This document shows positions 3,274 through 52,581 of a stretch of DNA of 64,000 bases, in pieces. A program made the translations under genes and the position numbers. The stretch is from a virus (taxonomy: Duplodnaviria; Heunggongvirae; Uroviricota; Caudoviricetes): the IMG/VR virus record IMGVR_UViG_3300027852_001421. One strand, 5' to 3'. Under the pieces are notes generated by a model that did no database searches, was not told where the DNA came from, and saw only the letters and a program-made list of their open reading frames with translations. The stretch's first letter is position 1. Every line of letters begins with the position of its first letter.

Positions 3274-3487
3274 TTCTTGACCTCCCCAATAACATTTCCA
3301 AAATCAGAAACCCGAGGGTCTCATCAGAAAATGCGTCAGCGCCAGGCCTTTACTTAGTGAGGGGTCCGCCGACCCTATCGTTCTCGCATCATCTAGTACG
3401 AAATATTTGTTTCAGCAACACCCAGTGACCCCGGGTGGGGTCTGGCAGGGTGCAGCCATGAAATCCACAGCTGCACCTTCATAGCAC

Positions 3488-4357: not shown

Positions 4358-4599
4358 GTGGGATCTCCTTACGAGAAGATGCATCTTTAAGGTATAACTA
4401 GAATTTTCGCAAACGGTTCTATCTCATTTGCGTGAGAATCGACGTAACGCGAGGTTGCGGCTGCAAACCGGGCGGCGACGTGGTGGTTTGACCATATAAA
4501 TAATGAAAGATTGAGCCTATTAGCGGTTTTGCGAAAAATCGGCTTGCTAGTCTGTTTCCAGTATGTCAGAAAGTTTATGAAAGCCAAAAGGAGATGTTT

Positions 4600-5814: not shown

Positions 5815-5835
5815 ACTCTCAAGATATGTGGATAA

Positions 5836-5866
5836 GGGGAGGGTGCGTGTCGCCCTCCCCTTTTTA
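5836..5866 (+). terminator. Rho-independent terminator
   Basis: ggggagggt-gcgtgtc-gccctcccc hairpin followed by ttttta, directly after the stop of the 4600..5814 gene. Confidence 0.6.
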
Positions 5867-5876
5867 TTGTGCGAAA

Positions 5877-6485
5877 ATGAAAAACCAACATATTTACGCA
5901 AAGGGCGCGTCTGTGGGCAACTACAAGAGCAACAAATTCGACGGGAGCCTCGCTCTTCGTGTGACCATCGCCAGCCTTATCTGTCCATTCCCCATCGTTC
6001 TGCTGGTTCTCTTAGGGCCAACGCTCATGGCGCTTTTAGGGGGTCTGCCGGGGATGATCCTAACGATGATCCTTTGTTGCCTTGTTATTGCGCTGGTTGC
6101 AGAACTGCTCAAGTTGGTGCCCTTCCCCCTAGTGACAGTTATGAAGGACGACACGCCGCCTTCGGATTTGGAAATCGCGCGCACACGCCTGTGGCACACT
6201 TTCAGCGCACTGCCGCTGTCATTCGCTGCAGCTTTGCTCTGGACAGTCTCTGCCGCCTTGTCATTGGAGTATTATGCAGCGCCAATCATGCTGATCATTG
6301 TCAGCCCCATGACGATCGCATTTCTGATCCTGCACCTCGACAGCGAAACAGCCGCTGAGGCCCTGCGAAAATCACTGCGCACATTCATCCTGATGTTGCT
6401 GGTCTCATTTATGTTTTCCCCAGAGCCCGCTGAGTTGGACAGCGTGGGGGCAGCGGATAACGCATCTGATAGCTTTCCGCGGTAG
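5877..6485 (+). CDS. polytopic membrane protein (ORFan)
   Basis: Start MKNQHIY. Four or more hydrophobic helices. The TGCGAAAA motif overlaps the ATG (tgtgcgaaaATG). Confidence 0.55.
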   Translation: MKNQHIYAKGASVGNYKSNKFDGSLALRVTIASLICPFPIVLLVLLGPTLMALLGGLPGMILTMILCCLVIALVAELLKLVPFPLVTVMKDDTPPSDLEIARTRLWHTFSALPLSFAAALLWTVSAALSLEYYAAPIMLIIVSPMTIAFLILHLDSETAAEALRKSLRTFILMLLVSFMFSPEPAELDSVGAADNASDSFPR

Positions 6486-6491
6486 TGCTGT

Positions 6492-7385
6492 TCAGGCGCG
6501 TTCACGGTCACGGAACAAACGACACTGGCGCGCCGCGGCTTTGAGATCTGAGGGATTGGCCGGCAGAGGCCGTCCCGCAGCCCGCGCCGCATCCAGAGCA
6601 TCGGGATCTTTTGAGATCTGCGCCGCGTATTTCTGCACCCGATCTAGGGCATCGCTGACAGGATTGCTCAGCCGCGCTGCGCGCCCTGTTAGGCGCATTA
6701 CCGATGTGATCTCATCCACACCGGCCGAGCCTAATCGATCAAACCCGGAAAGCAGCCGCATCAGAGCATAGTCAATCGCAAGCTTGCGCAGTTCCTTGGC
6801 CTCGAATGAAGCCTGTGAGCCACAAAGCAGTGCCGCCTCCTCAAGAAGGATCAGCGTATTGATGTGCCGCAGGAAAGCTTTGCGATCGAGATCCAGTACA
6901 GCATCTTTGAGCATGAGATCGACGATCTCTGTGCCGCATTTGCGGATGCGCGCCTTTACAGAGGCGCTCTCATCCTCTTCGCCCTTCGGACCAGGCTCAG
7001 GTTTCAGCGACAAGCGCCGACGCATCCCCTCATTATAGCCATAGCGCATCTCATCGACCATGACGTCGGGGTCAGGTGAGGCTTCCAAACGCTGCATGGC
7101 GGCCTCGAGCGGCGTACCCTCCGCACCAAGGCCAAGGCACATGGCCATTCGCAATCGGATCGCCTTATCCTGATGGGACAGGATGGAGCGCAGCCAGACA
7201 TCATCAGCGGCATTCAGGAGATTGGGGTTCGGGCGACCTCGCCCCTCGAATTCTTTGAAGACCTGCGCTTCACGTGCTTCGATCAAACCTGCGAGACCGA
7301 TTTTGGAGAAACTGCTCTCGATGCTGTCCGCTCGTTGGACATCGATCATCAGGTCCTCAATCAAGGCAGTGTAATGTTCTGGCAT
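6492..7385 (-). CDS. hypothetical protein (297 aa)
   Basis: Long ORF with protein-like composition. No recognisable motif. Confidence 0.55.
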   Translation of the reverse strand: MPEHYTALIEDLMIDVQRADSIESSFSKIGLAGLIEAREAQVFKEFEGRGRPNPNLLNAADDVWLRSILSHQDKAIRLRMAMCLGLGAEGTPLEAAMQRLEASPDPDVMVDEMRYGYNEGMRRRLSLKPEPGPKGEEDESASVKARIRKCGTEIVDLMLKDAVLDLDRKAFLRHINTLILLEEAALLCGSQASFEAKELRKLAIDYALMRLLSGFDRLGSAGVDEITSVMRLTGRAARLSNPVSDALDRVQKYAAQISKDPDALDAARAAGRPLPANPSDLKAAARQCRLFRDRERA

Positions 7386-7771
7386 GCCGCATCCCTAGCT
7401 CTGATGCCATATAAAGCACATAGCACCGGGATTCTGAAAGCGCATACTGATAGACGCGAGGGTCGTCTCAAGTCTGTGGTTTAGGGGCGCTCGCCGCGCA
7501 CCGGCCACTTCAGCTTTGCTTTCAGCGACCCAACCATCTTGCCGACGCTGAAGCTCGAAAATGCGACGATACATACGAAGAGAATGAGGAAGGTCAGAAT
7601 AAGAAGGATCTGCACGATATGGCTCCTTGCCGGGTTTCCTCCATATTTATGCAGTTTGCGATTTTTCGCAAGACTACAAGCTGCGGTATTTGCCACCGAT
7701 CCCTCAGTATCCCCTTGCCGAGACCGCGCTCATCCTCCAAAAAGTTATCGCCACATACTTATGGGGGTTCA

Positions 7772-8419
7772 GTGGAGCGTCAGATTCCCAACAAGGAAAA
7801 GCAGTTCAGCCTGGCGCGTGAAGCTGCAATTCTAATTCCCAGATACCCCGAGCAAGACGACCTTCCTGATGGGTCTGCGATACTGGCTCCATTGGACTCC
7901 CAAGGGCGCATGTATCCTCAAGGCGACCACATCATCTATTGCGTGGAAGATGGGAGCGGTTATGGGATCCGTCTGTGGGACTTCCTGGACATGACGACGA
8001 ACGCCGCTTTGGGGATCAGGTACTCCGGCCGATATGGCCGGCTGGGCACCTGCCCCGGACGAGACGTTCTTATGGCCGCGATATACGATCTTGATCGCCT
8101 GGTTATCAGTCAGTTTCTGCAGCCGTCCCTTCTCGAAGATTGGGCCGAGGAAGACCGGGATGACCTCAAGCCCCCCTGCGCGCCCAGCGGAACCCGCGAT
8201 GTCGGGGCGACCCGGCGCCTTATCGGCAGCGGGCGCGCTCTTCTGCATAAAAAACCGGGTATCATCCAGTTCAGGAACGGACAGGTGCTTGTACAGACCA
8301 AGAATCACACGCAACCGGTGATCTTTGATCACGACGATGCTGCCTTGGCCGCGGAGTTAAGCGACGTTGATCTCCCCGGAGAAGTTAGGCGTAGGATATT
8401 CGGTCGGGAAGACGGGTAA
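7772..8419 (+). CDS. hypothetical protein (GTG start proposed)
   Basis: The track ORF 7619..8419 has no good ATG. GTG at 7772 is preceded by GGGGG. An antisense 166-aa ORF (7832..8332) overlaps it and strand choice is uncertain. Confidence 0.4.
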   Translation: MERQIPNKEKQFSLAREAAILIPRYPEQDDLPDGSAILAPLDSQGRMYPQGDHIIYCVEDGSGYGIRLWDFLDMTTNAALGIRYSGRYGRLGTCPGRDVLMAAIYDLDRLVISQFLQPSLLEDWAEEDRDDLKPPCAPSGTRDVGATRRLIGSGRALLHKKPGIIQFRNGQVLVQTKNHTQPVIFDHDDAALAAELSDVDLPGEVRRRIFGREDG

Positions 8420-11625: not shown

Positions 11626-13131
11626 TCAAATGATGAAATTGGCCTCATCAGCCAGATCGCTTTCTTGATCGTCGCCCATCTCTACGAGGAAGCGCTCACC
11701 TGTTTCTTTCAGGCTCACGGAGAACAGCAGCTCGTCATCGATACTCACTTCGCTGATATCAAGATCCGCAAAACTGTCTACGCTCACCCCATTTCCAAAT
11801 TGGATAACGTCTTCTCCAGCTGTGAAATCCTTGATGATATCGAGTTGCGCGTATTTTTCTGTCTCTGTTCCTTCGAGGGAGTCCCAGACCTGCAGGTCGC
11901 CGGCGTCAAAGCGGTAGGTGTCCTTCCCTGCCCCGCCATATAGCGTGTCTGTGCCCGAGCCGCCCGTCAGTGTGTCATTGCCGGTGCCGCCGCGGAGAAG
12001 GTCATCACCGGATCCACCCACGAGATGATCATCTTCAGAGCCCCCGTAGAGCGTGTCATCCCCGGCGCCGCCACGGACTTCGTCCATATCCATACCCCCG
12101 GCCAGGTGGTCGTCGCCATTGCCACCATAGATCGTGTCATTGCCCTTACCTGCATCGACAACATCATCCCCATCACCGGCGCGGAACAAGCCATCTGCAT
12201 CGGGTGTCTTCTGAACATCCCAGATCCAATCATCACCATCGGTGCCAGCAATCGAGTCCTCCGTGTTCTTCATCATGTTCAGGTCTTCATCAAATGAGCC
12301 CTTGGGGACGTAGTTTTGCTGGTCGATGTAATCGACCACTGGCAGTGCAGACAGATCCTCGGGCATTTCAGAGAAATGCGTTTCAGCTCCGGCATGGCGC
12401 GCGCCTTCGAGCGCATAGAGCCCTTTGTCTCCGAGGCGCAGCCATTGCTGGTCGAGATACTCGACCACATCGACGCCTTCAGGAAGATCATGCAGAACCA
12501 GTTCTTGCCCCTCAAGGACGATCACATCGCGGGTGATATCGAAGTCCTCGATGCGACCCAAAATGGGGCTGTTGAGCTGACCGATATTGTCAAACTCGAT
12601 CGTGTCGTTGCCGGTGCCTGTGTAGACATGATGGCCGTCGTAGTTGCTTTCATTGGTCAGATCGAGAACGATGCGATCGTCGCCCTCCCCGCCGCCGACA
12701 TGAACCTGACCGAAACCTGGGATCGAGGAGATAAGCGTATCATCGCCATGGCCGCCCCAAAGCTCGCTGTATCCTTCTGATCCGTCTAGGATGATGATGT
12801 CGTCACCGCCCAAACCGCTGAACCGGTCTTCACCGCCATTGCCGGACATGATGTCTTTTGCGCCAGTGCCCGAGAGACGCTCATCTGCCGAGGTGCCTTG
12901 GATGCGATCACCTGGGATATCACTCTCCAGATCAAGCGTATCGATGACCGCCACACCATCATCGTAGGACCTGATGTCAAAGCCACCCTCTTCCGGGTCT
13001 GGCTGGGTCGGCTCCACTGGGTCCACGGGATCCGGGCGGGAGGGATCCAAGGGTTCAGAGGATTTACTGCTGGATCCGCCACTCATTCCGAAGGCGGCGC
13101 CGAGGCCAAGTAGGATCAATAGGAATTGCAT
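11626..13131 (-). CDS. RTX (hemolysin-type calcium-binding repeat) secreted protein
   Basis: Multiple GGxGxDxL/I nonapeptide repeats (GGNGDDHLAGG..GGAGDDTLYGG..GGSGDDLLRGGTGNDTLTGGSGTDTLYGGAGKDTY). Leaderless acidic C-terminus is consistent with a T1SS substrate. Confidence 0.75.
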   Translation of the reverse strand: MQFLLILLGLGAAFGMSGGSSSKSSEPLDPSRPDPVDPVEPTQPDPEEGGFDIRSYDDGVAVIDTLDLESDIPGDRIQGTSADERLSGTGAKDIMSGNGGEDRFSGLGGDDIIILDGSEGYSELWGGHGDDTLISSIPGFGQVHVGGGEGDDRIVLDLTNESNYDGHHVYTGTGNDTIEFDNIGQLNSPILGRIEDFDITRDVIVLEGQELVLHDLPEGVDVVEYLDQQWLRLGDKGLYALEGARHAGAETHFSEMPEDLSALPVVDYIDQQNYVPKGSFDEDLNMMKNTEDSIAGTDGDDWIWDVQKTPDADGLFRAGDGDDVVDAGKGNDTIYGGNGDDHLAGGMDMDEVRGGAGDDTLYGGSEDDHLVGGSGDDLLRGGTGNDTLTGGSGTDTLYGGAGKDTYRFDAGDLQVWDSLEGTETEKYAQLDIIKDFTAGEDVIQFGNGVSVDSFADLDISEVSIDDELLFSVSLKETGERFLVEMGDDQESDLADEANFII

Positions 13132-19116: not shown

Positions 19117-19971
19117 TCAGACGGACCGCTTCATATGCTTGTACTTCCGATCAAAGCTCGCGAGCTTCGGCAAGTCCATGGCGGCTGGCGACGCGCGCAT
19201 CTTGCCATGATCCAGGAACAGGCTGACAGCACGATCCCGATTGATGATCTTCATCGATTTGTCGTCCTGACGTGGCCCCCAGCCGACCCGCAGCAGATAG
19301 TTCAGCATGGCATCCGGATCGACACCGTCATCGCGGTAGCCCAGAAGACTTGCCGCGGCATCGCGTTTGGACATCTTCTTGCCGTCCATGGTAATCAAGC
19401 CGACATGAGCGAAGTCCGGCATAGGTGCCCCTAAGGCGCTGTAGAGCCCAGCATGGCGGAAGGTATTTGTCAGATGATCCATGCCGCGGATCACGAGGTT
19501 CACTCCAAGATCGATGTCATCGACCACGGAGGCGAAATGATAGACCGGCATGCCGTCGGCTTTGATCAGAACCTGATCACGCGCCAGATCATGCGCCTTG
19601 GCGCTGGGCAGCTGATCGCCGGAAATCAGATCGCTCCATGGCGCTGCCGCCCCACCCTTCATCAACACGGCGCCATTGTCGGCACGCATGGCGAGCCCGG
19701 CATCGAGGAGCTTGGCGGCAGCGGCATCATAGATGTCGCGCCGGTGCGACTGACGGTAGACGGCATCGGGCGCAAGCCCCAACCAATCGAGGCAGTCATG
19801 AATGACGTCGATCGAGGCGTGGTTGTTGCGCGAAAGATCCGTGTCATCGATGCGCAGGATGAAGCGACCGCCACTGGCGCGTGCAGACAACCAGTTGAAA
19901 TAGGCGGTGCGGGCGGTGCCGATGTGAAAGTCGCCTGTTGGCGATGGGGCAACGCGGGTCGTATAGGTCAC
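19117..19971 (-). CDS. gluQ: glutamyl-Q tRNA(Asp) synthetase (truncated GluRS paralog)
   Basis: Class I HIGH region PSPTGDFHIGTARTA and KMSKR motif. About 284 aa, lacking the anticodon-binding domain. GTG start with AAAGGA 9 nt upstream gives an N-terminus colinear with E. coli GluQRS. Confidence 0.8.
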   Translation of the reverse strand: MTYTTRVAPSPTGDFHIGTARTAYFNWLSARASGGRFILRIDDTDLSRNNHASIDVIHDCLDWLGLAPDAVYRQSHRRDIYDAAAAKLLDAGLAMRADNGAVLMKGGAAAPWSDLISGDQLPSAKAHDLARDQVLIKADGMPVYHFASVVDDIDLGVNLVIRGMDHLTNTFRHAGLYSALGAPMPDFAHVGLITMDGKKMSKRDAAASLLGYRDDGVDPDAMLNYLLRVGWGPRQDDKSMKIINRDRAVSLFLDHGKMRASPAAMDLPKLASFDRKYKHMKRSV

Positions 19972-19984
19972 TGTGAAAATCCTT

Positions 19985-20335
19985 TCAGACGCCAATTCGA
20001 TGTGCGTGAGCCTGCAGGTCTTCCGGGTCCGCGATGCGCGAGACGCAGAATGCCATTGGCTCATTGAGAGAAGCCGCAACCAGATCAGGAAACTCGGCTT
20101 TGAGGGTTCGGTATGAGGCCAGGGCTTCTTCATCGAAATACGATCCTGTGTGGACCGATGTGGGCAAGTAATCTCCGGATGTCGGATCAAAGAGGCGTTG
20201 TGCATCATGAGTTGATCTCTGTCGCGTTTGAAGAACCTTGCTACGCATCCATGCAGCTGCTTCACCCCGATCGGGGAAGCGGGGCAGCTCCGGATCTGGG
20301 GAACGTCGTTTGAAACGGCTCAACATGGACAACAT
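19985..20335 (-). CDS. hypothetical protein (116 aa)
   Basis: ORF directly upstream of gluQ on the same strand. Confidence 0.45.
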   Translation of the reverse strand: MLSMLSRFKRRSPDPELPRFPDRGEAAAWMRSKVLQTRQRSTHDAQRLFDPTSGDYLPTSVHTGSYFDEEALASYRTLKAEFPDLVAASLNEPMAFCVSRIADPEDLQAHAHRIGV

Positions 20336-20340
20336 CTTGG

Positions 20341-20416
20341 TCTCCTAAATTTGGCATCCGCAGCGAGGATCGAACTCGCGTCTTCGGGGTGAGGTCCCGG
20401 TATTCTGACCAATTGA
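20341..20416 (-). tRNA. tRNA, probable tRNA-Glu (anticodon CUC) with atypical features
   Basis: Cloverleaf drawn by hand. Acceptor GTCCGCA/TGCGGAT (G1-U72 wobble), D arm GTTC-AATTGGTCA-GAAT, anticodon arm CCGGG-ACCTCAC-CCCGA (C at position 33, one C-A mismatch), T arm GCGAG-TTCGATC-CTCGC, discriminator G, encoded CCA. Total 76 nt. Confidence 0.6.
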
Positions 20417-20429
20417 ACTATGCGGACGT

Positions 20430-20505
20430 GGTGGTGATTTTGGCATCTCCTACGAGTCTCGAACTCGTTTCTGCTGCTTGAAAGGCGACTGTTCTAACCG
20501 GGTGA
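20430..20505 (-). tRNA. tRNA-Glu (anticodon UUC)
   Basis: Acceptor GTCTCCT/AGGAGAT (again G1-U72), D arm GTTC-ACCCGGTTA-GAAC, anticodon arm GTCGC-CTTTCAA-GCAGC, T arm ACGAG-TTCGAGA-CTCGT, G73, CCA. Same architecture as the neighbouring tRNA, 13 nt apart. Confidence 0.6.
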
Positions 20506-20525
20506 ACTAAGGAGACGTAAGGGCA

Positions 20526-21227: not shown

Positions 21228-21407
21228 CGCGAAAAACCCTCTCTATGTTAAAGTTTATATATTCGCACTTCTTGTTGGGGCAACCTGTCGCCGTAGGAAT
21301 AATTCTGCCCAGCGGGGCTTAAAACTTCTTTGAACCTCTGGATTATCGCAAGCCATCCCTATACTGGCGGCACCAATCGAGACGAGAAAAACGAGACCAC
21401 AGGCAGT

Positions 21408-21932
21408 ATGATCACAGCAACCCTCATCGGCTATCTCGCGATCGCCATCAGCATCACGAGTTATATGCTTCGTGATGACCACCGTCTGCGGGTGCTGAAC
21501 GTCATCTCATGCCTGTTCTGGACCAGCTATTTTGTGATGCTCGGTGAGTGGACCTCGGTCGCCAGCCTCTCTCTGGCCTGCGTGATGATCTGGGGTGCGC
21601 TCTATGGGTACAAACGTACTGCGAATGTCGCCTGGTACCTTTGCATTGCAGCGATCCCGGCCTCCTTTGTGGCTGTCGCCGCAGGACAGATCACAATGAT
21701 CGATACCCTCCCCTTCATCGGCGGTGCGGCCATCAATACCGGTGTCGCATTTCTAAGCCGCGGCAAGCTCACCCTCGCCTGCGCAGCAGGAGAATGTACC
21801 TGGGGTCTCTTTGCGGTGATGATTGGCGCCTGGCCAAGCGCCTTCATGGCCCTGTTCTCACTGGGCGCTTTGGCCTATCGGGAGTTCTCGCGCTTCAGCT
21901 ACGAACGCCAGATCGGGAACGCGCCCGCCTGA
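21408..21932 (+). CDS. YgjV-like inner membrane protein
   Basis: Start MITATLIGYLAIAISITSY. Five or six TM helices and about 175 aa, consistent with the Imp-YgjV family. Confidence 0.5.
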   Translation: MITATLIGYLAIAISITSYMLRDDHRLRVLNVISCLFWTSYFVMLGEWTSVASLSLACVMIWGALYGYKRTANVAWYLCIAAIPASFVAVAAGQITMIDTLPFIGGAAINTGVAFLSRGKLTLACAAGECTWGLFAVMIGAWPSAFMALFSLGALAYREFSRFSYERQIGNAPA

Positions 21933-21945
21933 GGCAGGCGCCCCG

Positions 21946-23223
21946 TCAAGGACAGGGGGCCTCCACGTCTAGGGCTGTCCGTAGGGTGATCTCAACATTC
22001 TCGCGGCAGGGCCCTTCTGATTTGATCTTGAGATCATGCCCGCAAAGACCTGCGATGACCTCGGCGAGGTTCTCGCTGCTAATCTCTGAGACAAAAGGCC
22101 CCTCCCCCATATCCATCACCGAGATCTCGATATTATCGCCCAGCTGATCAAGGCAAGTGACCCCCAGGCCATGATCAATGTCTACGCCCTGCCCTGCGCT
22201 GCGCGCGAGATCGGCCGAGATGATGCGGTCCAACTCTCTGAGATCCAAGGGCGCGTAGCGGATGGCGTCCTGCCATTCGTTTGGCCTGTTGGTGCGGTCG
22301 ATCACCTCGGTGCCAGGCAAGGGTGTCGTTCCGCGGTCGAGCGGGAACGGCCCTGCCCCGTGCCGCGTGGCATAGGCGCGGGTCATGTAGATGATCTCTA
22401 GATCCGTGATCCCGGCGTTTCGGGCGATTTCCACCATGTTCTTGGCGCCCGTATGAGACCGCGTCACATGAGGAAAGACCCCGAGATCCATATCGAGCTG
22501 CAAACCTTGAGCGCCTTCGAAAACCACCGCATCGCGATCGCACAAGGCATCATCCGACATGAGGGAGACAACAGCCCTATATCTGTGCAGATCTTTTGCA
22601 AACCGGCCAGTGAAGCCCGATACATCGCTCAGAACAGGCTTCAGGTGATCTGGGATATCTGTAAGCCCCAAGGCTGCCAGCCGCGCGGGCACCCAGACCG
22701 AGGCGATCTCTCTCAGGCGTGACATCAGGTCTGGCGAGGTAAGGTCCTGCATGGTGAGAGAAGGGCCATTCTCTTGGCGCTCGAGGGTTTCCCCAAACCC
22801 CAGGCCGCAAGAGCCATGTTTATCACCACCGCGGGCAATTTCAGCGGCTTGATTGATGGCCATGTCCCAAGGTGTGGTGATTGGCGAGCGTGGATCGGCT
22901 GTGATTTGCAGATCTCGAACGCCTTTGCGCGCGAGATCCTCCAGCTCCGAAAAGAAGACCATTGGATGGGAGACAAAGAAGCGCGACAGATGCGTGGCCG
23001 CGCCCCGGAAGGATCCGGAGCCGATATGGTGAAATACATGGTGGCGACCGTCGCCCATGGTGACCCCGTGGCCCGCCTGTGCGCCGCCATTGGAGCGCAC
23101 CACGGTCACTTGGCGCCCCTGCTCCACAAGCTGTGCTGTAAGTGCGTCTGTGCCCAGCCCCTTACCTTCATCACCCCAGCCGGCGCCGATGATCCCATAG
23201 ACTTTGCGGATGTCATTTCCCAT
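21946..23223 (-). CDS. adenylosuccinate synthetase (PurA)-family protein, divergent paralog
   Basis: IIGAGWGDEGKGLGTD (PurA P-loop GDEGKGK with the last K replaced by L), GGAQAGHGV (the GGNNAGHT region), VVFEGAQGLQLDMDLGVFPHVTRSHT (the FEGAQG..D.D.GTYP.VTSS region). Confidence 0.7.
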   Translation of the reverse strand: MGNDIRKVYGIIGAGWGDEGKGLGTDALTAQLVEQGRQVTVVRSNGGAQAGHGVTMGDGRHHVFHHIGSGSFRGAATHLSRFFVSHPMVFFSELEDLARKGVRDLQITADPRSPITTPWDMAINQAAEIARGGDKHGSCGLGFGETLERQENGPSLTMQDLTSPDLMSRLREIASVWVPARLAALGLTDIPDHLKPVLSDVSGFTGRFAKDLHRYRAVVSLMSDDALCDRDAVVFEGAQGLQLDMDLGVFPHVTRSHTGAKNMVEIARNAGITDLEIIYMTRAYATRHGAGPFPLDRGTTPLPGTEVIDRTNRPNEWQDAIRYAPLDLRELDRIISADLARSAGQGVDIDHGLGVTCLDQLGDNIEISVMDMGEGPFVSEISSENLAEVIAGLCGHDLKIKSEGPCRENVEITLRTALDVEAPCP

Positions 23224-23749
23224 TCAGGACCTCACTCTCTTGAGTGTCATGATGGACCGTATTTTCCTGCTCGGGAGACAGCCGTGCGCAGAGATCCGCG
23301 ATGTAGTCGGTAAACCAAGCGGCGGCCTCAGGTGTCGCATGCTCAGCGACCGCCATGGGCTTCACGCGACCATCAGGGAAAGTGAAATCGACATGGACAG
23401 CCACGCGCTCCCCACGCTCGGGAGAGGCGAAGCGTTTGTCGCTCCCTTCAGTGATCCGAACCGCAGCTGGATAGCCGGCCGTGATCCCATGCATCACCAT
23501 GCCCAGAGCCCCATCATCAAAATAACGCAACTTGTCGAAGTCCTTGTCGAAGAAAGCCCCATAGGGCTTTAGCGTGTTGGCCAGTTCCCCCAGGCCGTAC
23601 ATCCCAAGCTTCATTTCCATTTCGCGGAAGGTCTTACGCATGAGGGGGAAGTGGCGCTCGGGGATGCGCAGAACGATTTCGGCCTCGCTGTTTTGCGGAG
23701 TCTCGCTCAAGGCAGGAGATGCAGCACCGCAGGTAGGGCATTTTGTCAT
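23213..23749 (-). CDS. hypothetical protein with N-terminal CPxC zinc-ribbon-like motif
   Basis: MTKCPTCGAAS at the N-terminus. It overlaps the PurA-like gene start by 11 nt, suggesting an operon. Confidence 0.5.
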   Translation of the reverse strand: MTKCPTCGAASPALSETPQNSEAEIVLRIPERHFPLMRKTFREMEMKLGMYGLGELANTLKPYGAFFDKDFDKLRYFDDGALGMVMHGITAGYPAAVRITEGSDKRFASPERGERVAVHVDFTFPDGRVKPMAVAEHATPEAAAWFTDYIADLCARLSPEQENTVHHDTQESEVLNGK

Positions 23750-23803
23750 AGGTCTTCGCTCCGGGGGAATTGGGCCTGATAGGCTTTATTCAGGCTCTTC
23801 TGG

Positions 23804-24766
23804 TTAGGGCGTGGGCATCTCATCTTCCGTGGTCAGGTCACTGTCGGGAGATGTAGGAATACTGAGGCGTATATCTGTGGTTGAAATACGCCAGTCCGCT
23901 TTACCCGCTGCAATCCGAACCAGATGGTCCCCCTCAAAGCTTGCGGTGATGTCTTCAGGCGTCACACCAGTGAGCTCTTCCAAGGACCGCGCTTCAATCC
24001 AGCTATCTTCCATGGAAGCGATGAAGGTATCCGTTGCCTTGTTCTGGATTTTCTCATCTACAAAAAGAGACCAGGCTTCTTGGCCCCCAAACTCGAGAAT
24101 GAGATATTGGGTGCCGTCCTTGCGGACCTTCATTGAAGCTTCCTTGCAGAACAGACTATATACGAGCGCCGCGTTAGCCCCCTGTCTTGCCTTCCTCGGG
24201 CTAAGATCGAGATCGAGGAAGGCATCGAAAGACTTCTGGTAGTGCTGTGAAAATTTGGTTTCGAAATCCCGTAGGACGCGCGCGGCGGCCTCAATCTCGG
24301 GTGGGGTGATGTCGCCATTCCGGGCATCTTCCAGGCCGCGGTCGTAGAATGCGGCATAGCGCTCCATGGAGGACTGATTGCGCATTGTGGAGAGGTCATC
24401 CACAAGAGCCGCGCCCTCCGGTGGCATCTGGCTGCCCGCGGCAGCCCCCGTAAGATATTCTGCCTGGGCCGCTTGATATTCACCGAGGACTTGGCCCGGA
24501 TCATCAAGATGGTGAGGCATGATCGGAAGTAAGCTCATTGCATATTGCAGCCCTTGGACAACGGCGATGCCACCGATACCCCAGACGGAGTACATTCTGG
24601 ACCACTTCGCTTTTGCGGTGCCTTTAGCGGTTTCGAGAGCTAGGGTCCCGATCCTTTGATACAGCGGCGTATCAGTGCTGGTCAGGCGGTCCTTGAAAGA
24701 TCGAAGTTCTTCTTTCTTCTTCTCAATGCTGGCCCGTGTTGCCGTTTTGATGCGCTTCATCTGCAT
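23804..24766 (-). CDS. hypothetical protein with one internal TM segment; C-terminus DLTTEDEMPTP
   Basis: 320-aa ORF with a hydrophobic segment WGIGGIAVVQGLQYAMSLL. Confidence 0.5.
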   Translation of the reverse strand: MQMKRIKTATRASIEKKKEELRSFKDRLTSTDTPLYQRIGTLALETAKGTAKAKWSRMYSVWGIGGIAVVQGLQYAMSLLPIMPHHLDDPGQVLGEYQAAQAEYLTGAAAGSQMPPEGAALVDDLSTMRNQSSMERYAAFYDRGLEDARNGDITPPEIEAAARVLRDFETKFSQHYQKSFDAFLDLDLSPRKARQGANAALVYSLFCKEASMKVRKDGTQYLILEFGGQEAWSLFVDEKIQNKATDTFIASMEDSWIEARSLEELTGVTPEDITASFEGDHLVRIAAGKADWRISTTDIRLSIPTSPDSDLTTEDEMPTP

Positions 24767-24780
24767 GCCTTTCTGTCAGT

Positions 24781-25194
24781 TCAGTCGAGCTCGATCTCAT
24801 CTTCAGGCTCGTCTTCGGGCTCATATCTCTGGATCCAATCCTCGATCGTGAGGACATGGGCCTCACAGGCAGCGGCGCCCAGGGGTCCAAAGGCGCCATG
24901 ACAGCCGCTCGGGCGCTGCGCTGTTTTGTGGAACACGGCGGCCCCATATACCTGAAGTTCTTCATCGGCCATCTCAGAAACTGCAGGGTCAGGCTTGATG
25001 TCCTGAGCCTTGATTTTTCCCATGACCACGGACCAGAGCGCTTCGGTCATCGAAGGTGCAACCCATTCGTCGGTCAACTCCAGCGATCCATCGAGAAGGC
25101 CGCCGCCGCGCTGAGAAAGTTCCCGGAGAACCAGGGCTGGTACGGAGTTGAAATCCTCTTCTGTGAAGGCTTCAGGGTGTTTGGGATCAGGCAT
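24781..25194 (-). CDS. small acidic protein; C-terminus YEPEDEPEDEIELD
   Basis: 137-aa ORF, 14 nt upstream of the next gene. Confidence 0.5.
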   Translation of the reverse strand: MPDPKHPEAFTEEDFNSVPALVLRELSQRGGGLLDGSLELTDEWVAPSMTEALWSVVMGKIKAQDIKPDPAVSEMADEELQVYGAAVFHKTAQRPSGCHGAFGPLGAAACEAHVLTIEDWIQRYEPEDEPEDEIELD

Positions 25195-25305
25195 GATTGG
25201 CTCCGGTCTAGGTAAGATACAACCCTACAAGAGGGCTGTGAAAAATCTTACAGTGATGCTCTTTCAAGGACGTAATGTCCGGGCGTTTCCACCCGGACCA
25301 CTGAC

Positions 25306-26229
25306 TCACAGCCGCTGAACACCGCGGGACTGGCCAGTCTTGGCCGGCACGCCCTTCAGGGCATTGGCCACGGTCAGCGCAGTCGAGCCAGACCAGCTCG
25401 CAGCCACATCGGAGGCCAGGGCCCCTTCGGTTACCTGGATCAGCGACACAACTGTCTCGGCCAGGGCATTGACGTCCTCGAGCTGAATGGTGCGCTCGGG
25501 CAGGATCTGGCGCCAGGTAGTGAGGACGTGATCGCGCGACTGGCCCCAGTTGCAGTAGCCCTCGTTGACCAGTGCGATGTGGAAGACCTCCCAATCGCGT
25601 TGAACCATACGGATGATGTCGGCCGCCGAGAGATCCGCCTCGACCGAGATGCCCAAAACACGCTCAATCTCTGCTTTGGTCATGCCATCGTGGATCGGCT
25701 CGTCGCCAATGGTGAAGAGGTAGCCCTTGCGGCCGCGTTTCTCGATCGCATCGGCGCGGACCTTGGTTGCGGCGAAAAGATGGGCCGACGAGTAGGATTC
25801 ACCGCCGTTTCCGCCCCCTGCCCCTTCAAGCCAGAGCTTGCGGGCCTGTTCAGCGACGCGAATATCGGCTTCGAACTGGGTTACCTGCAATGGCGCCCGG
25901 TCGGTTTTCGCATCCCCCACGCCCATGATCATGATATGCGGATCAGTGACCGGCTTGCGGTCATAGATCTGGGTCGCCAGAGTGTTGAGCCCGTCGCGCA
26001 TCAGCTTCTCAGCAATCATGCCCATGGAGCCGGTCACATCCGAGGCGAGGATGATCGGGGTCGACAGCGGGTTGTCCGCGGAGTCCCGGCTTTCACGGAA
26101 TTCGATCTTTGCAGGGTTGAATTCGTCTTTCATGTTGCGCGAGGTGAAAATCTGGCTTTGCGATTTACCCGCGGTGTTCTGTGCTGTGTAGCCGGCCCAA
26201 GCCGAGCTGTCCCAACGTCCGTCTCCCAT
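25306..26229 (-). CDS. von Willebrand factor A (VWA) domain protein
   Basis: AAGGAG 7 nt before ATG. MIDAS-like ILASDVTGSMG (DxTxS), then the downstream hydrophobic beta-strand pattern of a VWA fold. Confidence 0.65.
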   Translation of the reverse strand: MGDGRWDSSAWAGYTAQNTAGKSQSQIFTSRNMKDEFNPAKIEFRESRDSADNPLSTPIILASDVTGSMGMIAEKLMRDGLNTLATQIYDRKPVTDPHIMIMGVGDAKTDRAPLQVTQFEADIRVAEQARKLWLEGAGGGNGGESYSSAHLFAATKVRADAIEKRGRKGYLFTIGDEPIHDGMTKAEIERVLGISVEADLSAADIIRMVQRDWEVFHIALVNEGYCNWGQSRDHVLTTWRQILPERTIQLEDVNALAETVVSLIQVTEGALASDVAASWSGSTALTVANALKGVPAKTGQSRGVQRL

Positions 26230-26284
26230 TTCGATACTCCTTCATATGGTGTTACCCATGGTATAAATGATTAAGTTGCATTGT

Positions 26285-26315
26285 ACAAGTTGTAATGTGC
26301 AACTTAATAATTACG
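26285..26315. promoter_or_regulatory. palindromic candidate operator AAGTTGCA-N-TGCAACTT (a related copy at 27362-27392 is not listed separately)
   Basis: aagttgcattgtacaagttgtaatgtgcaacttaat downstream of the J-domain gene, and taacttgtatcatgcaacttaatatt between the J-domain gene and the divergent NrtR-like gene. Confidence 0.35.
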
Positions 26316-27324
26316 CGTATACACCAACCCCCGCACCGCTATATTTTGCAAAGCGCCGGACACCCCAGGCATCGGTCAAAGCCTTCTGCCATTTGGCGTA
26401 ATCGGCAATGCCATCTTGGCCTGGCGGGAGCATCAGCCAGTTTCGGATGGGCTCCGGAAGATTTAAGCTGGCGAGCTTGCTCAAAGAAGGTGCCCCTAAG
26501 GCCTCGCAGGTGGTGCGCCGGATTAATTCAAGATCCAAAGATGGATCGACTGTCACGCCCGGAACCGCGAGCTGGGGTGAAAGCTGCAGCGTCCGGTTGG
26601 GCAGCATTGCAGGGCGCATGCCGGCTTCAGTGGCAAAGCCCCAGCCAGCGACCAGGCGCACAGCATGGGTTTCGGGGTCGACCATGACAGTGTCAGGGCT
26701 AATGGCGCCATGCACCAAGCCTGCCCAAGTCAACCAGGCTGCGATGTTCATTAGGCCAGAGCAGAGCCAGGCCGCGTGTTTTGGTGCCATCGGGCCGTCG
26801 CTTGCAATGAGGTCTGCCAGAAGCACGTCTCCCTGCCGGCGTTCATGGGTGATCAAGATCCCGCCGCCCTGCAGATCGATCCGCGATTTGTGGCGGGGTA
26901 GAAACATCCGCATCTGCTTTTCCATCTTTGCATCGGCAAATTTGAAACCGGCCAGGGTGCGCAGCTCGGCTTCGGCGATATCCGCGAGATCGGCCTCGAA
27001 GATCTGGCCGATACTGACTGGACCAACCATCAAAAGACCAATGTCTGTCTCATGGCGCGACAGGTACCGCATGGCCTGGCGCTTGCCGGTGGTGGTGGTG
27101 AAGATCTGCTGATCGATCGGCCGCCGCGGTGCGCCGCGGGCGGCGTCCCGTAGGGTGACGAGCTTGGCAAAGACCTCATGAGCCTTCGGGTCCGGGCAGT
27201 GGTCCGGGTGCCAGCGTGCGGCGAGTGTGCGAAAAGACTTTTTGTCAGCCTTCTCATCTCCAGAGAAAATCTTGGCTGCTTCACTGAGACCCATGTTGAG
27301 AATGCGTTCTGCTGAAAGGTTCAT
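26311..27324 (-). CDS. J-domain (DnaJ-like) protein with uncharacterised C-terminal domain
   Basis: N-terminal KKSFRTLAARWHPDHCPD (HPD tripeptide with flanking J-domain helices). TGGAG before ATG 27324. Confidence 0.65.
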   Translation of the reverse strand: MNLSAERILNMGLSEAAKIFSGDEKADKKSFRTLAARWHPDHCPDPKAHEVFAKLVTLRDAARGAPRRPIDQQIFTTTTGKRQAMRYLSRHETDIGLLMVGPVSIGQIFEADLADIAEAELRTLAGFKFADAKMEKQMRMFLPRHKSRIDLQGGGILITHERRQGDVLLADLIASDGPMAPKHAAWLCSGLMNIAAWLTWAGLVHGAISPDTVMVDPETHAVRLVAGWGFATEAGMRPAMLPNRTLQLSPQLAVPGVTVDPSLDLELIRRTTCEALGAPSLSKLASLNLPEPIRNWLMLPPGQDGIADYAKWQKALTDAWGVRRFAKYSGAGVGVYA

Positions 27325-27459
27325 AATGGGCTCCAATATCACTGTTGTAGTTAAACTAAGTAAATAACTTGTATCATGCAACTTAATATTCTATATCTGA
27401 TTAAACGATGTAATTTAGGGGGCTTGGATAGAACCGGCCGCCTCTCGGCAGGAGACAAC

Positions 27460-28155
27460 ATGACAGAGACGCCATTACCAAAGGATGCCGCCTATAACCC
27501 GATTTGTACCGTTGATGCTGTTCTTCTGACCATTGAGGGCGATTGCCTAAAGGTGCTTTTACACCGTCGGCCTAAGGCGCCTTTTGAGGGGTGTTGGGCG
27601 CTTGTTGGCGGCTACATTCACCGCGATGAGGATCAGGGCGTTCTGGAGGCTGTGCAGCGCATCCTACGTGACAAGGCAGGACTGCCTGCGCTGCACCTTG
27701 AACAGCTGCAGACCTACTCCGGTCCCAAGCGGGATCCACGCGGCTGGTCTGTCTCAGTAGCCCATCTCGGTTTAGTGCCGCGCGCGCAACTTGAGCTTCC
27801 TCAAGACCCTGATGTTTTGCTGACAGATGTGGAAGAACTGCCCGAACTGGCTTTCGACCACCGAACCATACTTGATGATGCGGTGGCACGCCTGCGCGGA
27901 AAGAGCGCCTATTCCACTCTGCCAGCGTCATTCCTCGATGCGCTCTTCACTCTGCCCGAACTGCACCGTGCCTATGAGATTGTCCTGGGGGTGAAGCTCG
28001 ATCCAAGTTCGTTCCGACGCAAAGCCCTCGACCGCGGCATGATTGAAGATAGCGGTGAGATGCGCACCGATGGGAGCCGGCGTCCAGCAAAACTATACCG
28101 TCTTTGCGCGCCAGCCCAGACATTCGATCAGACCTTCGCGCCGCAGCAGTGGTGA
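27460..28155 (+). CDS. NrtR-like regulator (degenerate Nudix domain plus C-terminal winged helix)
   Basis: AGGAGACAAC-ATG. Nudix-box remnant GGYIHRDEDQGVLEAVQRILRDKAGL with the catalytic RE/EE positions substituted (RI, DK), as in non-catalytic NrtR proteins. A C-terminal region of about 80 aa is consistent with a wHTH. Confidence 0.6.
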   Translation: MTETPLPKDAAYNPICTVDAVLLTIEGDCLKVLLHRRPKAPFEGCWALVGGYIHRDEDQGVLEAVQRILRDKAGLPALHLEQLQTYSGPKRDPRGWSVSVAHLGLVPRAQLELPQDPDVLLTDVEELPELAFDHRTILDDAVARLRGKSAYSTLPASFLDALFTLPELHRAYEIVLGVKLDPSSFRRKALDRGMIEDSGEMRTDGSRRPAKLYRLCAPAQTFDQTFAPQQW

Positions 28156-31373: not shown

Positions 31374-31955
31374 TCACTTGTCTAGGTAGACCATGATGGT
31401 GCCCTCATCCGGGCAGGCAGCACCAAGATCCGCAGGTGTCGGTCGCCCATTGATGACGGTGGCATTACGACCTTCCGATACGGTCATGTTGCGGACGCTC
31501 AACCCTGAGGCTTCGGAAATTGACATCATCTGCTCGCCGACCCGCAGGCAGACGGATTTGGGGATGTTGACCAACTCCAGCCTCAATCCAGCAGGATCGG
31601 TTGGCATGTTGCTACCGATCCAAAATTCACCCCCCCAGGCATGCTCAAGAATTTCATTCGTCTCATCGAAATGGAAGGCGCTCCCCTCTGTCAGGAAACC
31701 CGCCTTGTGCAGGATGAGAGGGATGTTCGCGCCATCGAGGTCCGAGAGGTCCCCTTCCTGCGACAGGTTCAACGTTGCGGGGAGCATGGCCGCCATGCCG
31801 CGGGTGGTTGCATCAATCTTGGAACTCTCTTGAGCTTGTTGAAAAAAGACGATGCCGCCTACGATCACTGCCAAGGCGATGACGAGGTAGAGCACCCCTT
31901 CAATGAGGGAAATCCCGCGCCGGCGCGCAGAGGTGCGTAGGGAGATAAATTGCAT
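31374..31955 (-). CDS. prepilin-type N-terminal cleavage/methylation domain protein (type IV pilin or pseudopilin-like), orphan
   Basis: MQFISLRTSARRRG-ISLIEGVLYLVIALAVIVGGIVFF. Basic leader, G at -1 and E at +5, then a hydrophobic helix: a class III signal peptide. Confidence 0.6.
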   Translation of the reverse strand: MQFISLRTSARRRGISLIEGVLYLVIALAVIVGGIVFFQQAQESSKIDATTRGMAAMLPATLNLSQEGDLSDLDGANIPLILHKAGFLTEGSAFHFDETNEILEHAWGGEFWIGSNMPTDPAGLRLELVNIPKSVCLRVGEQMMSISEASGLSVRNMTVSEGRNATVINGRPTPADLGAACPDEGTIMVYLDK

Positions 31956-42673: not shown

Positions 42674-44008
42674 TTACAGCTCCGGCAGCGCAGGACCCTT
42701 AAGCTCGCACACCGGAGCCCCAAAGGGGTCCGCCACTGCGCTGTGATCCAAACCCACAGACCTGCCAGCTTCCGAGAAACTTGTCTGAAGTGTTTCGAGG
42801 TCTGCCTCGCTTGCTCCACGGTCCGAGAGCACCCGGCGCCAGCTTTTGCCCACCATGTGGCTCATATCATTGGCAATCTCGATCGCGCGTACCTGAGAGA
42901 CACCAAGGCTGGCGGCACCCATCACAGCATTCTCCAATGTCGCCTCCCGGCCGCAACCCGCCTTACCGAGGTGCATGAAGAGGCTGCGGCTCGTCGAGAA
43001 GCCTGTAGAAGGTGTGACGTCATAGACCGGGCTCGGCTCATAGAGCCCCTGATCGTTCAGCAGAAAGGCATGGTTCCGGTAGTGGTCATCTGTATTGCCA
43101 CATAGGACATTCATGACCATCCGCTTATAGATGGTCTCGCCAGCATCCTCCGCAGCGCCATAGCGGCGCATCCCATCATAGAGGTCCGCATAGCCGGAGG
43201 CGGCCCGGTCCATCTCATGGGCCCCGAGCAGGGTAAGGCCCGAGATCATATGACGCCGGTGGAGCTTGCCGCTCTCATCAGGCTCGCGGTCAAAGCGTTT
43301 CAGAAGCAATGTCGGACGCCCGGCCACATCAATGATGTCGCGTTCGCAAACCGCGAGGCCCGCCATCTCACACAGATCGAGGCAGCCCGCCTCGGCCGCG
43401 GCCATGGTGATGCTGTCGCTCTCGATGCCGAACTTGGCCAACCAGGGATGATCATTGATCGTCACCGTGCCCTTGGGGCGCGCGCCACCCAGATCAGCAC
43501 CGGGTGAAACGTGGTCAAGCAGGTGATCCGGCACATGGCGGCCCGTCTTGAAGGTGTCGACCATCTCCTGAAAAGCCTCGAGCGTGCCGAGATCAGAGGA
43601 GACATCGGGCAGACCCACATCGAGGATTTGACCGGGCCCTTCCGTGGTGGGGCCGAACTGCACACCGCCGATCCGCGTGCCGCGCTGGGAGACCAGGAGA
43701 TACTCGGCCTCGGAGGCATTCCGGCCCTCGGTGCGCTTCATGTAGAGATCGATGAGCTTGCGCCCCCAGGCGTCCGGAGCGGCATCGCGGATCCCGTTAA
43801 ACAGGGTGAAGTCCTCATGGGTGCGCAGATGGTCTTTGCCCAAAGGCATCTGGACGGGGTCGATGGCCACTGCGTCGGGGCGCTCGAGGTACTTGCGGCC
43901 GTAGTCGAAATCTGAGCGCGAATAACGTCCGTCTTCTGTGATTACCAAACGTCCGACCGGTACAGTTTCGCCGTGCAGTTCAAGAAATACGATTGCCTTA
44001 TGTTCCAT
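42674..44008 (-). CDS. hipA: HipA-family serine/threonine kinase toxin
   Basis: HipA N-terminal coupling domain pattern, DLGGARPKGTV, and catalytic NTDDHYRNHAFLL (NxDDHxxN loop). 444 aa. Confidence 0.8.
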   Translation of the reverse strand: MEHKAIVFLELHGETVPVGRLVITEDGRYSRSDFDYGRKYLERPDAVAIDPVQMPLGKDHLRTHEDFTLFNGIRDAAPDAWGRKLIDLYMKRTEGRNASEAEYLLVSQRGTRIGGVQFGPTTEGPGQILDVGLPDVSSDLGTLEAFQEMVDTFKTGRHVPDHLLDHVSPGADLGGARPKGTVTINDHPWLAKFGIESDSITMAAAEAGCLDLCEMAGLAVCERDIIDVAGRPTLLLKRFDREPDESGKLHRRHMISGLTLLGAHEMDRAASGYADLYDGMRRYGAAEDAGETIYKRMVMNVLCGNTDDHYRNHAFLLNDQGLYEPSPVYDVTPSTGFSTSRSLFMHLGKAGCGREATLENAVMGAASLGVSQVRAIEIANDMSHMVGKSWRRVLSDRGASEADLETLQTSFSEAGRSVGLDHSAVADPFGAPVCELKGPALPEL

Positions 44009-45945: not shown

Positions 45946-46028
45946 TTATGGTACCACCTCGCCTACCCTTGCCAAAACCATGGCAGATTACCAATCTGGC
46001 GGCAAATACGACGGTATGGGATCTGAAT

Positions 46029-52433: not shown

Positions 52434-52581
52434 GAAGCCGCGCCCGCGGTAGCGGACCGGAACCCTGCCAGTTTGACCTATTAAGAATTGTGCCCTACCG
52501 TTTCATCTGTGTTGCGCCACCAGCTGGGTGAACGTGACGATGCAATTTTCAGACTCCGCGAATTTTCAAGAAAGGTCATAT

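Follow-up and report, generated by a model that had tools for sequence, protein, structure and literature searches.

The region at positions 21946–27324 of a 64,000-nucleotide stretch of viral DNA (Caudoviricetes; IMG/VR record IMGVR_UViG_3300027852_001421; hereafter the window, meaning the whole stretch) is one copy of a mobile, widespread gene cassette, the core of which is a gene for a von Willebrand factor A (vWA) protein followed by a gene for an enzyme related to adenylosuccinate synthetase (PurA). Judged by its sequence, the vWA-linked PurA-like enzyme is a non-housekeeping PurA paralog, separate from PurA and from PurZ, and it probably does not make the normal AMP precursor. No description of the PurA-like/vWA pair was found in the searchable literature; databases and phage annotators label homologs of the enzyme adenylosuccinate synthetase, and the vWA partner is annotated as "hypothetical" everywhere.

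Six co-directional open reading frames (ORFs) on the minus strand occupy the region, with intergenic gaps of −11 to 111 nt, and the same genes were called independently on identical metagenome contigs (ENA ERZ27237540, 112.6 kb; three JGI samples). A first-pass annotation of the window had described this gene run and a PurA homolog at its end, and both were borne out. The enzyme matched PF00709 (Adenylsucc_synt) with E = 1.4e-44, covering profile positions 2–275 of 416 only, and phrog_1211 at 5.4e-55, and the motifs GDEGKGL (with K18 replaced by L), GGAQAGH and FEGAQGLQLDMDLGVFPHVT were read in its translation. Identity to PurA is approximately 26–30% across the first 300 residues, and more than 7700 homologs of the protein were found. 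The annotation had also held that the enzyme is not the housekeeping PurA, which agrees with the curated models: the NCBIfam PurA equivalogs scored 126.7 and 132.1 bits (cut-offs 395.55 for TIGR00184 and 402 for NF002223), and the PurZ model NF038379 scored 37.1 bits (cut-off 300). In a tree of 47 sequences built by neighbor joining, a distance method, with five references only, 100/100 bootstraps recovered the vWA-linked enzymes as monophyletic. E. coli PurA, a phage PurA with 48% identity and the PurZ-like proteins, three in number, all fell outside; thus the family did not group with housekeeping PurA in the phylogenetic comparison that the annotation had proposed. In one viral contig (L163, IMG/VR 3300035181_001311, positions 3403–5925), the PurA-like gene is split by an intein of approximately 430 residues with homing-endonuclease motifs. 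The intein sits immediately after the catalytic AGH (H41), a position that points to functional constraint on the AGH site.

To compare active sites, 77 family members were aligned with E. coli PurA, the numbering of which is used throughout. In E. coli PurA, the 5′-phosphate of inosine monophosphate (IMP) is held by N38, T129 and R143, the last contributed by the other subunit of the homodimer, and aspartate is held by T300, T301, R303 and R305. In the vWA-linked family, G12-D13-E14-G15-K16-G17, H41, Q224, T239 and D333 are invariant or nearly so, with D13, H41 and Q224 invariant in the 75–77 of 77 members aligned at those columns; S414 is kept in 59/77 and G416 in 73/77. The contacts to the IMP 5′-phosphate are changed, with N38 replaced by Q in 74/77 members, T129 by C in 71/77 and R143 not conserved (variable E/G/A/D). 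K18 is L in 62/77 members, and further replacements are Q34 to N, T128 to S, R131 to L or V, S240 to R and V273 to H. The (T/N)KxD position for guanine specificity reads TCLD, D333 being kept in 76/77 members and K331 replaced by C in 74/77. The aspartate loop TTGRxRR (T300, T301, R303, R305) is replaced by N-x-[WYF]-Q-G-x-[LI]-R; the C-terminal third of the enzyme aligns poorly with PurA and the residue equivalences in this loop are uncertain, but whichever of the two alignments is used, the family lacks a TT...RR motif. A pattern search retrieved the replacement loop from 122 of 145 vWA/PurA-like pairs. TTGR is retained in E. coli PurA and in the canonical-like phage PurA, and TT..RR in the three PurZ-like phage proteins, which read GS(T/E)xKG and so carry Ser at the D13 position.

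Ser at this position is the diagnostic PurZ change (10.1101/2025.10.22.683976). Because D13 is kept, with no Ser, and the aspartate loop is replaced, the family, as read from its alignment, resembles PurA where the base is recognized but departs from both PurA and PurZ where the acceptor binds. The inspection of substrate-pocket residues suggested in the first-pass annotation, carried out here on the alignment, therefore gave a divided answer, base-site D13, H41 and Q224 being kept and the contacts to the IMP 5′-phosphate and to aspartate being replaced. The same division applies to the proposal that the enzyme ligates an amino acid to a purine nucleotide: the residues for GTP and for O6-phosphorylation are kept, but the amino acid is insecure, TTGRxRR being gone from the 77 sequences.

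The 307-residue partner is, on its predicted structure, a MIDAS-type vWA protein, as its DxTGS motif had led the first-pass annotation to propose, and putatively binds metal. It had no Pfam or NCBIfam match and matched phrog_2971 (unknown function) at 3.7e-47. An AlphaFold2 (AF2) model built on 35 homologs had a pLDDT of 86.8, and Foldseek placed it with integrin beta-I, the vWA domains of Ku80 and RGLG5, and NorD (probability 1.0, TM-scores about 0.35–0.49). The MIDAS reads D64-V-T-G-S68; DVTGSM is present in 64/80 bacterial and 72/77 viral homologs, the remaining 16 and 5 missing the exact six-residue pattern, and G175-D176-E177, after beta-4, is invariant in the alignment. More than 6300 homologs were found, with 60–90% identity among the 120 best listed and approximately 50% in other phyla. 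Within the same Alphaproteobacteria, identity is approximately 60–80% for the vWA protein and approximately 50% for the enzyme, and this higher conservation fits a subunit better than a fast-evolving sensor. The N-terminus M-G-x-x-x-[WF] is conserved from Alphaproteobacteria to mycobacteriophages (homologs in loci L013–L173; window positions 26212–26229), which is unusual for an N-terminus.

To examine the arrangement of the cassette, loci were fetched with the vWA alignment, 80 from bacteria (of at least 136 hits) and 80 from viruses (of 281 IMG/VR hits, on contigs of up to 607 kb). The PurA-like gene lies directly downstream of the vWA gene in 73/80 bacterial and 74/80 viral loci, and most of the others end at a contig edge. 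This conserved pairing upholds the earlier view of a dedicated system rather than purine biosynthesis. Carriers include at least 136 bacterial species genomes in several phyla (Alphaproteobacteria, Clostridium, Melainabacteria, Competibacter, Geobacter and others), and the vWA gene was found on twenty-one plasmids. Among isolated phages, the pair is present in about 200 sequenced cluster-C mycobacteriophages and in Vibrio and Rhizobium jumbo phages; records for the two genes numbered 201 and 202 in Mycobacterium phages and coincided in 10/10 Rhizobium and 6/6 Vibrio phages. No vWA gene accompanies the PurA homologs from phages of Listeria, Salmonella, Acinetobacter and Staphylococcus. Exact-protein look-ups found matching neighbors in Cereibacter, Rhizobium leguminosarum and Pelagibius. 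In Rhizobium, the cassette takes a minimal form (an NrtR-like gene, then vWA and PurA-like) at a conserved, stable chromosomal site. Phage copies commonly have further genes between vWA and PurA-like. In approximately ten T4-like viral contigs (L121, L123, L131–L133, L139 and others), these are the neck genes gp14-like and gp15 (tail sheath stabilizer), which places the pair inside the late structural cluster of those contigs.

The gene directly upstream of vWA, present at that position in 43/80 bacterial and 40/80 viral loci, encodes a 337-residue protein that, by profile and model, is a J domain fused to a pseudokinase. The first-pass annotation had recognized the J domain, which stands, but had overlooked the fused pseudokinase. 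On the single window sequence the J-domain match is 19.7 bits, under the Pfam cut-off of 27.8; a profile of 36 family members searched against PDB matched solved J domains at 2e-7 and protein kinases at about 5e-4. The window protein carries WHPD, and each residue of the HPD tripeptide is conserved in 90% or more of the 36 members aligned. Its AF2 model (pLDDT 90.5) has helices at residues 24–38 and 48–62, and the top Foldseek match was a DNAJB1-PKA chimera, followed by PKA, NIK, ASK1, PknB and PknG (probability 1.0). The catalytic loop reads HGAISPDT, with AGW in the place of DFG (family consensus H-N-A-I-S and GGW). The kinase part is assigned as a pseudokinase because the HRD Asp, the catalytic-loop Asn and the DFG Asp are replaced; Asp is retained in a few family members. 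In phages without the J-domain-pseudokinase, the slot upstream of vWA is taken by a 243-residue family that is conserved in its N-terminal domain and has a low-complexity tail rich in Met and Gly; it was found in eleven viral contigs, Vibrio phage pv27 and Rhizobium phage TM30 (for example, L146 7252–7983, L002 5243–5956, L001 4753–5544 and ten more) and belongs to no Pfam family. That this protein is a diverged J-domain-pseudokinase was rejected, as it had no match to the family hidden Markov model.

A divergent NrtR-type regulator gene that adjoins the gene run, and was absent from the first-pass annotation, belongs to the bacterial form of the cassette. Of the 80 bacterial loci, 48 contain an NrtR-like homolog and 41 have it divergently upstream of the cassette; viral loci are essentially devoid of it. 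De novo, unsupervised clustering of neighbors yielded no other recurrent family in the bacterial loci. The window protein matched NrtR_WHD (PF21906, 5.9e-20) and NUDIX (PF00293, 4.1e-08) in Pfam, and its Nudix box reads RILRDKAGL in place of REUxEExGU. In 27 of 43 related bacterial loci (among L014–L061), a de novo search of the intergenic region between nrtR and the cassette found two to five palindromic TTGCAA hexamers with 7-bp spacing, a pattern equaled in at most 1 of 200 shuffles per locus; these arrays are a putative operator in the related loci. They are unlike the published NrtR sites, the GT-N7-AC core and 21-bp palindromes (PMC2330246), and the GT-N7-AC core was itself rejected as the operator, its only matches lying within the coding sequence of nrtR. 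Known NrtR proteins act as repressors that respond to ADP-ribose (PMC2330246). Weaker ties to NAD+/ADP-ribose come from gene neighborhoods: NadV and NadM-Nudix genes lie within 1.5–3 kb of the cassette in 7/80 viral loci, Rhizobium phage TM30 has phosphoribosyltransferase-like and cytidyltransferase genes near its vWA/PurA-like pair, and the Cereibacter copy contains an ADP-ribosylglycohydrolase fusion gene, described below. The bacterial cassette is probably wired to ADP-ribose/NAD+ sensing.

The features of the window copy and its regulator are listed below. The three small genes inserted between vWA and PurA-like appear from homology searches to be lineage-specific, so that, of the partners named in the first-pass annotation, the vWA protein is retained throughout and the J-domain protein in half of the loci, but the acidic and 320-residue proteins had no homologs in 160 related loci and the CPxC protein is shared with one Cereibacter element only. 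The CPxC protein had no Pfam, PHROG or PADLOC family and no match in 160 other related loci; its only homolog, with 55% identity, is the product of a 170-residue gene that takes the corresponding place in the Cereibacter element L008. Described earlier as a zinc ribbon, it has a single N-terminal CPxC knuckle and no second Cys pair, which makes that description weak. The same holds for the label "transmembrane protein" given to the 318/320-residue protein, the hydrophobic stretch of which is borderline (maximum Kyte-Doolittle value 1.42 in a 19-residue window) and which had no family match besides a weak one to PADLOC PDC-M34B (E = 0.003). The acidic protein is indeed acidic (pI 4.24), with no family match.

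Features of the cassette in the window and of the adjoining regulator
Feature	Position	Strand	Description
PurA-like	21946–23223	−	425 aa; predicted PurA-family GTP-dependent ligase of the vWA-linked clade, neither canonical PurA nor PurZ
CPxC protein	23213–23749	−	178 aa; 11-nt overlap with the PurA-like start; lineage-specific accessory
318/320-aa protein	23804–24760/24766	−	One borderline hydrophobic segment; lineage-specific insert
Acidic protein	24781–25194	−	137 aa; lineage-specific insert
MIDAS-type vWA protein	25306–26229	−	307 aa; invariant partner of the PurA-like gene
J-domain-pseudokinase fusion	26311–27324	−	337 aa; kinase-fold part without catalytic residues
Divergent intergenic region	27325–27459	.	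Putative promoter region between the cassette and the nrtR-like gene
NrtR-type regulator	27460–28155	+	Degenerate Nudix and winged-helix DNA-binding domain; divergent from the cassette

From these features we infer the substrates and biological role of the cassette as follows, a composite reading that we hold, taken as a whole, at slightly under an even chance. The PurA-like enzyme would use GTP to phosphorylate O6 of a hypoxanthine-type nucleotide, activating the purine C6 carbonyl, and would join the activated C6 to an acceptor other than free L-aspartate, so that the product would be an N6-substituted adenine nucleotide and not adenylosuccinate. It would work as a heteromer with the vWA protein, which would replace the second PurA subunit and aid acceptor binding via its metal site; this role is suggested because the vWA protein is more conserved than the enzyme and always present while R143 is lost. 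Host DnaK would be brought to the vWA/enzyme complex, or to whatever that complex acts on, by the J-domain-pseudokinase. The NrtR-type repressor of bacterial copies would open the operon upon a rise of ADP-ribose, from NAD+ breakdown, or of a related ligand, and phage copies, which are without the repressor, would be expressed within the infection program. The likely arena would be a phage-host contest over NAD+/ADP-ribose and adenine-nucleotide pools, and a role in conflict or signaling is plausible.

Several observations weigh against this proposal. The chemistry is derived throughout from residue conservation on a sequence alignment, and the loop equivalences are uncertain as described above. 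A conserved Arg (S240 to R) and a conserved His (I126 to H), both new to the family, could still bind the 5′-phosphate, and with these replacements plain IMP is a possible substrate. Covariation between the vWA N-terminus and the replaced loop of the enzyme gave no signal. On the regulatory side, the NrtR-type protein scored 153.3 bits against the NCBIfam NtrR equivalog NF050029 (cut-off 400), the intergenic region of the window holds one near-copy of the hexamer (TTGCAT) only, with no significant operator or palindrome, and NrtR relatives regulate non-NAD pathways too (PMC2330246). NAD-salvage neighbors occur in fewer than 10% of viral loci, and the stable chromosomal site in Rhizobium looks more like ordinary physiology than a defense island.

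Four other explanations were weighed. The enzyme could be a true adenylosuccinate synthetase isozyme, an auxiliary gene that raises the flux from IMP to AMP for phage DNA and RNA synthesis or after loss of NAD+ and adenylate, with aspartate bound differently and the vWA protein serving as a regulatory or stabilizing subunit. The residues for GTP binding and O6-phosphorylation are all kept, D13 is of the PurA type, the database name is the one this explanation predicts, and nucleotide-metabolism genes are frequent in large phages, with NrdDG, ThyA and DHFR nearby here. We nevertheless consider an isozyme unlikely: both the aspartate contacts (T300, T301, R303, R305) and N38, T129 and R143 are replaced across the 77 members, even though the distant PurZ-like proteins keep TT...RR; scores are approximately one third of the curated equivalog cut-offs; and the strict coupling to a vWA gene and to chaperone-type partners is left unexplained. 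Carriers such as Rhizobium and Clostridium are also expected to have a normal purA. An enzyme acting on protein is decidedly unlikely, and would couple the activated purine nucleotide to an amino group on a protein, such as that of the invariant N-terminal glycine of the vWA protein or of a lysine in a target, the target being held by the vWA/MIDAS and the pseudokinase and DnaK being recruited via the J domain, so that the product would not be a free metabolite. The accessory partners are of protein-binding or chaperone type (the J-domain-pseudokinase and, in T4-like phages, the 243-residue Met/Gly-rich protein), no lyase or other small-molecule enzyme is found among the conserved neighbors, and a peptide backbone would be well accommodated by the N, aromatic residue and Q that stand where the aspartate loop has its carboxylate-binding Arg/Thr. 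The conserved vWA N-terminus, retained from Alphaproteobacteria to mycobacteriophages, is the basis of the protein-acceptor idea, and related NrtR-regulated systems centered on ADP-ribosylglycohydrolase (ARG) have been proposed to use vWA as a binder of modified protein (PMC9503650). The missing covariation between the N-terminus and the loop speaks against a protein acceptor, and a mere substrate would not need high conservation along the whole vWA protein. No member of the PurA family is known to us to act on protein, and in PurA the active site is buried. The most specific version is improbable, namely that an amino group on a protein, most obviously that of the universally conserved vWA N-terminal glycine, has taken the place of free aspartate as the acceptor, to form an N6-linked purine nucleotide-protein modification. 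In bacteria an ADP-ribose sensor would gate it, and large phages would employ it too, the J-domain-pseudokinase bringing in DnaK. If true, this would be a modification not known before, with N6 as the link between purine nucleotide and protein.

The pair could also be a remodeling or assembly machine like the MoxR-vWA pairs (NorQD, CbbQO, CobST), with the PurA-like protein as a GTP-driven switch and no relevant ligation product. The recurrence of NTPase and vWA gene pairs as a theme, the chaperone-type partners and the flanking of gp14/gp15 in the T4-like contigs are in keeping with such a machine. We regard it as improbable, however, since residues of PurA chemistry beyond GTP hydrolysis (D13, H41, Q224, T239) are invariant and the intein targets the AGH site; to our knowledge, the PurA fold has no remodeling activity. 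A PurZ-type enzyme for a 2-aminoadenine (Z) genome is effectively refuted, and with it the analogy to PurZ drawn in the first-pass annotation. The enzyme does occur in phages, and PHROG 1211 groups it with PurZ as "2-aminooxy adenylosuccinate synthetase", but the PurZ model reached 37 bits of the required 300, and D13 is kept in 75/77 members where PurZ has Ser (10.1101/2025.10.22.683976). A DNA polymerase gene adjoins or is close to the PurZ-like genes that were fetched, whereas the PurA-like gene is not beside a PolA-type polymerase, and no DatZ, MazZ or PolA-type DpoZ was found among those recurrent neighbor families that were annotated. The PurA-like family is also found at stable bacterial chromosomal sites.

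PurA paralogs have already given one surprise in PurZ and the Z genome, and the vWA-linked clade is much more widespread. That the aspartate loop has been lost throughout the clade while the catalytic core was kept is a pointer to new nucleotide chemistry. The gene content, with an obligatory vWA partner, a J-domain-pseudokinase and a regulator of NrtR type, speaks for a system that is regulated, forms complexes and is linked to NAD+/ADP-ribose, which is at present a central theme of phage-host conflict. The cassette is carried by tractable systems, including Mycobacterium smegmatis phages, Rhizobium leguminosarum and Vibrio phages.

The window is part of an uncultured element. Near-identical DNA to the window was not found in phage or plasmid collections or in IMG/VR (exact 37-mer), and PADLOC, run on the window for known defense systems, gave two weak kinase-like matches and nothing else. 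The majority of ORFs in the window (1–64000) have no Pfam or PHROG family. A gene for a YgjV-family inner-membrane protein (PF10688 in the gene table of the identical contig; 21330–21932, plus strand), seen in this lineage only, is convergent with the PurA-like gene, at a distance of 14 nt from its 3′ end. At 19117–20516 (minus strand), a GluRS/GluQRS-like gene, which encodes a catalytic domain only (284 residues; the gltX_bact match ends at profile position 317/470 and is under all curated cut-offs), is immediately preceded by two tRNA-Glu genes with the anticodons CUC and UUC; such a tRNA-Glu pair beside a GluRS without an anticodon domain is unusual on a mobile element. Further aminoacyl-tRNA-synthetase-like genes are of class Ib Trp/Tyr type (46951–48102, minus strand; PHROG 9e-86) and of class II with an HGTP anticodon domain (57867–59117, plus strand; PHROG 3e-141). 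The three synthetase-like genes, including the GluRS-like gene, suggest a very large phage or a similar element. Scattered matches elsewhere in the window were to HipA-like (42674–44008), RTX repeats (11626–13131), GIY-YIG (45948–46937), PLD-like (52528–53574) and a PilS-like type IV pilin (31374–31955). The Cereibacter sphaeroides contig of L008 (JAIRAT010000143.1) resembles the element in the window, with thyA and DHFR near its cassette, and has, between J-domain-pseudokinase and vWA, a gene for a 587-residue inositol-monophosphatase-like/ADP-ribosylglycohydrolase fusion (6081–7844).

Among known enzymes, PurA (EC 6.3.4.4) has the same superfamily and fold, and the GTP P-loop, D13, H41, Q224, T239 and D333 are common to both. 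Unlike PurA, the vWA-linked enzyme has K18 replaced by L, N38 by Q, T129 by C, V273 by H and K331 by C, with R143 lost and the aspartate loop replaced; it also fails the curated cut-offs, forms its own clade and is obligatorily paired with a vWA gene. PurZ, the succino-amino-deoxyadenylate synthase of Z-genome phages, is likewise a phage-borne PurA paralog of altered specificity and sets a precedent for unusual nucleotides. The PurZ-like proteins compared here have Ser at D13, the TT...RR loop and a neighboring DNA polymerase, whereas the PurA-like enzyme has D13, no such loop and a neighboring vWA gene.

Among gene systems, the closest published description is that of the ARG-centered NrtR/WYL systems with vWA "chaperones" (Iyer, Burroughs, Anantharaman and Aravind, 2022, PMC9503650, section 3.8), which have in common with the cassette a divergent Nudix-wHTH (NrtR-type) repressor, a vWA protein and a proposed link to ADP-ribose; one relative of the cassette, the Cereibacter element, adds the likeness of an inositol-phosphatase/ADP-ribosylglycohydrolase fusion. 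That paper mentions neither PurA nor J domains nor pseudokinases. Assignment of the cassette to the ARG-centered family was rejected, as ADP-ribosylglycohydrolase, the defining core of those systems, was found in 2/160 loci (L008 and L079). The MoxR-vWA pairs (NorQD, CbbQO, CobST/BchID) are likewise tightly linked genes for a P-loop NTPase and a MIDAS vWA protein, but their NTPase is an AAA+ ATPase, and that of the cassette appears to be a PurA-type ligase with conserved ligase-specific residues. Unlike the phage NAD+ reconstitution pathways (NARP1–3), the cassette has no NARP enzyme, and its PurA-type enzyme is assignable to no NAD-synthesizing step. With these pathways and with NrtR regulons it shares the NrtR-type regulator and an occasional proximity of NadV and NadM-Nudix genes, and NAD+ is an established battleground between phages and their hosts (PMC13464706).

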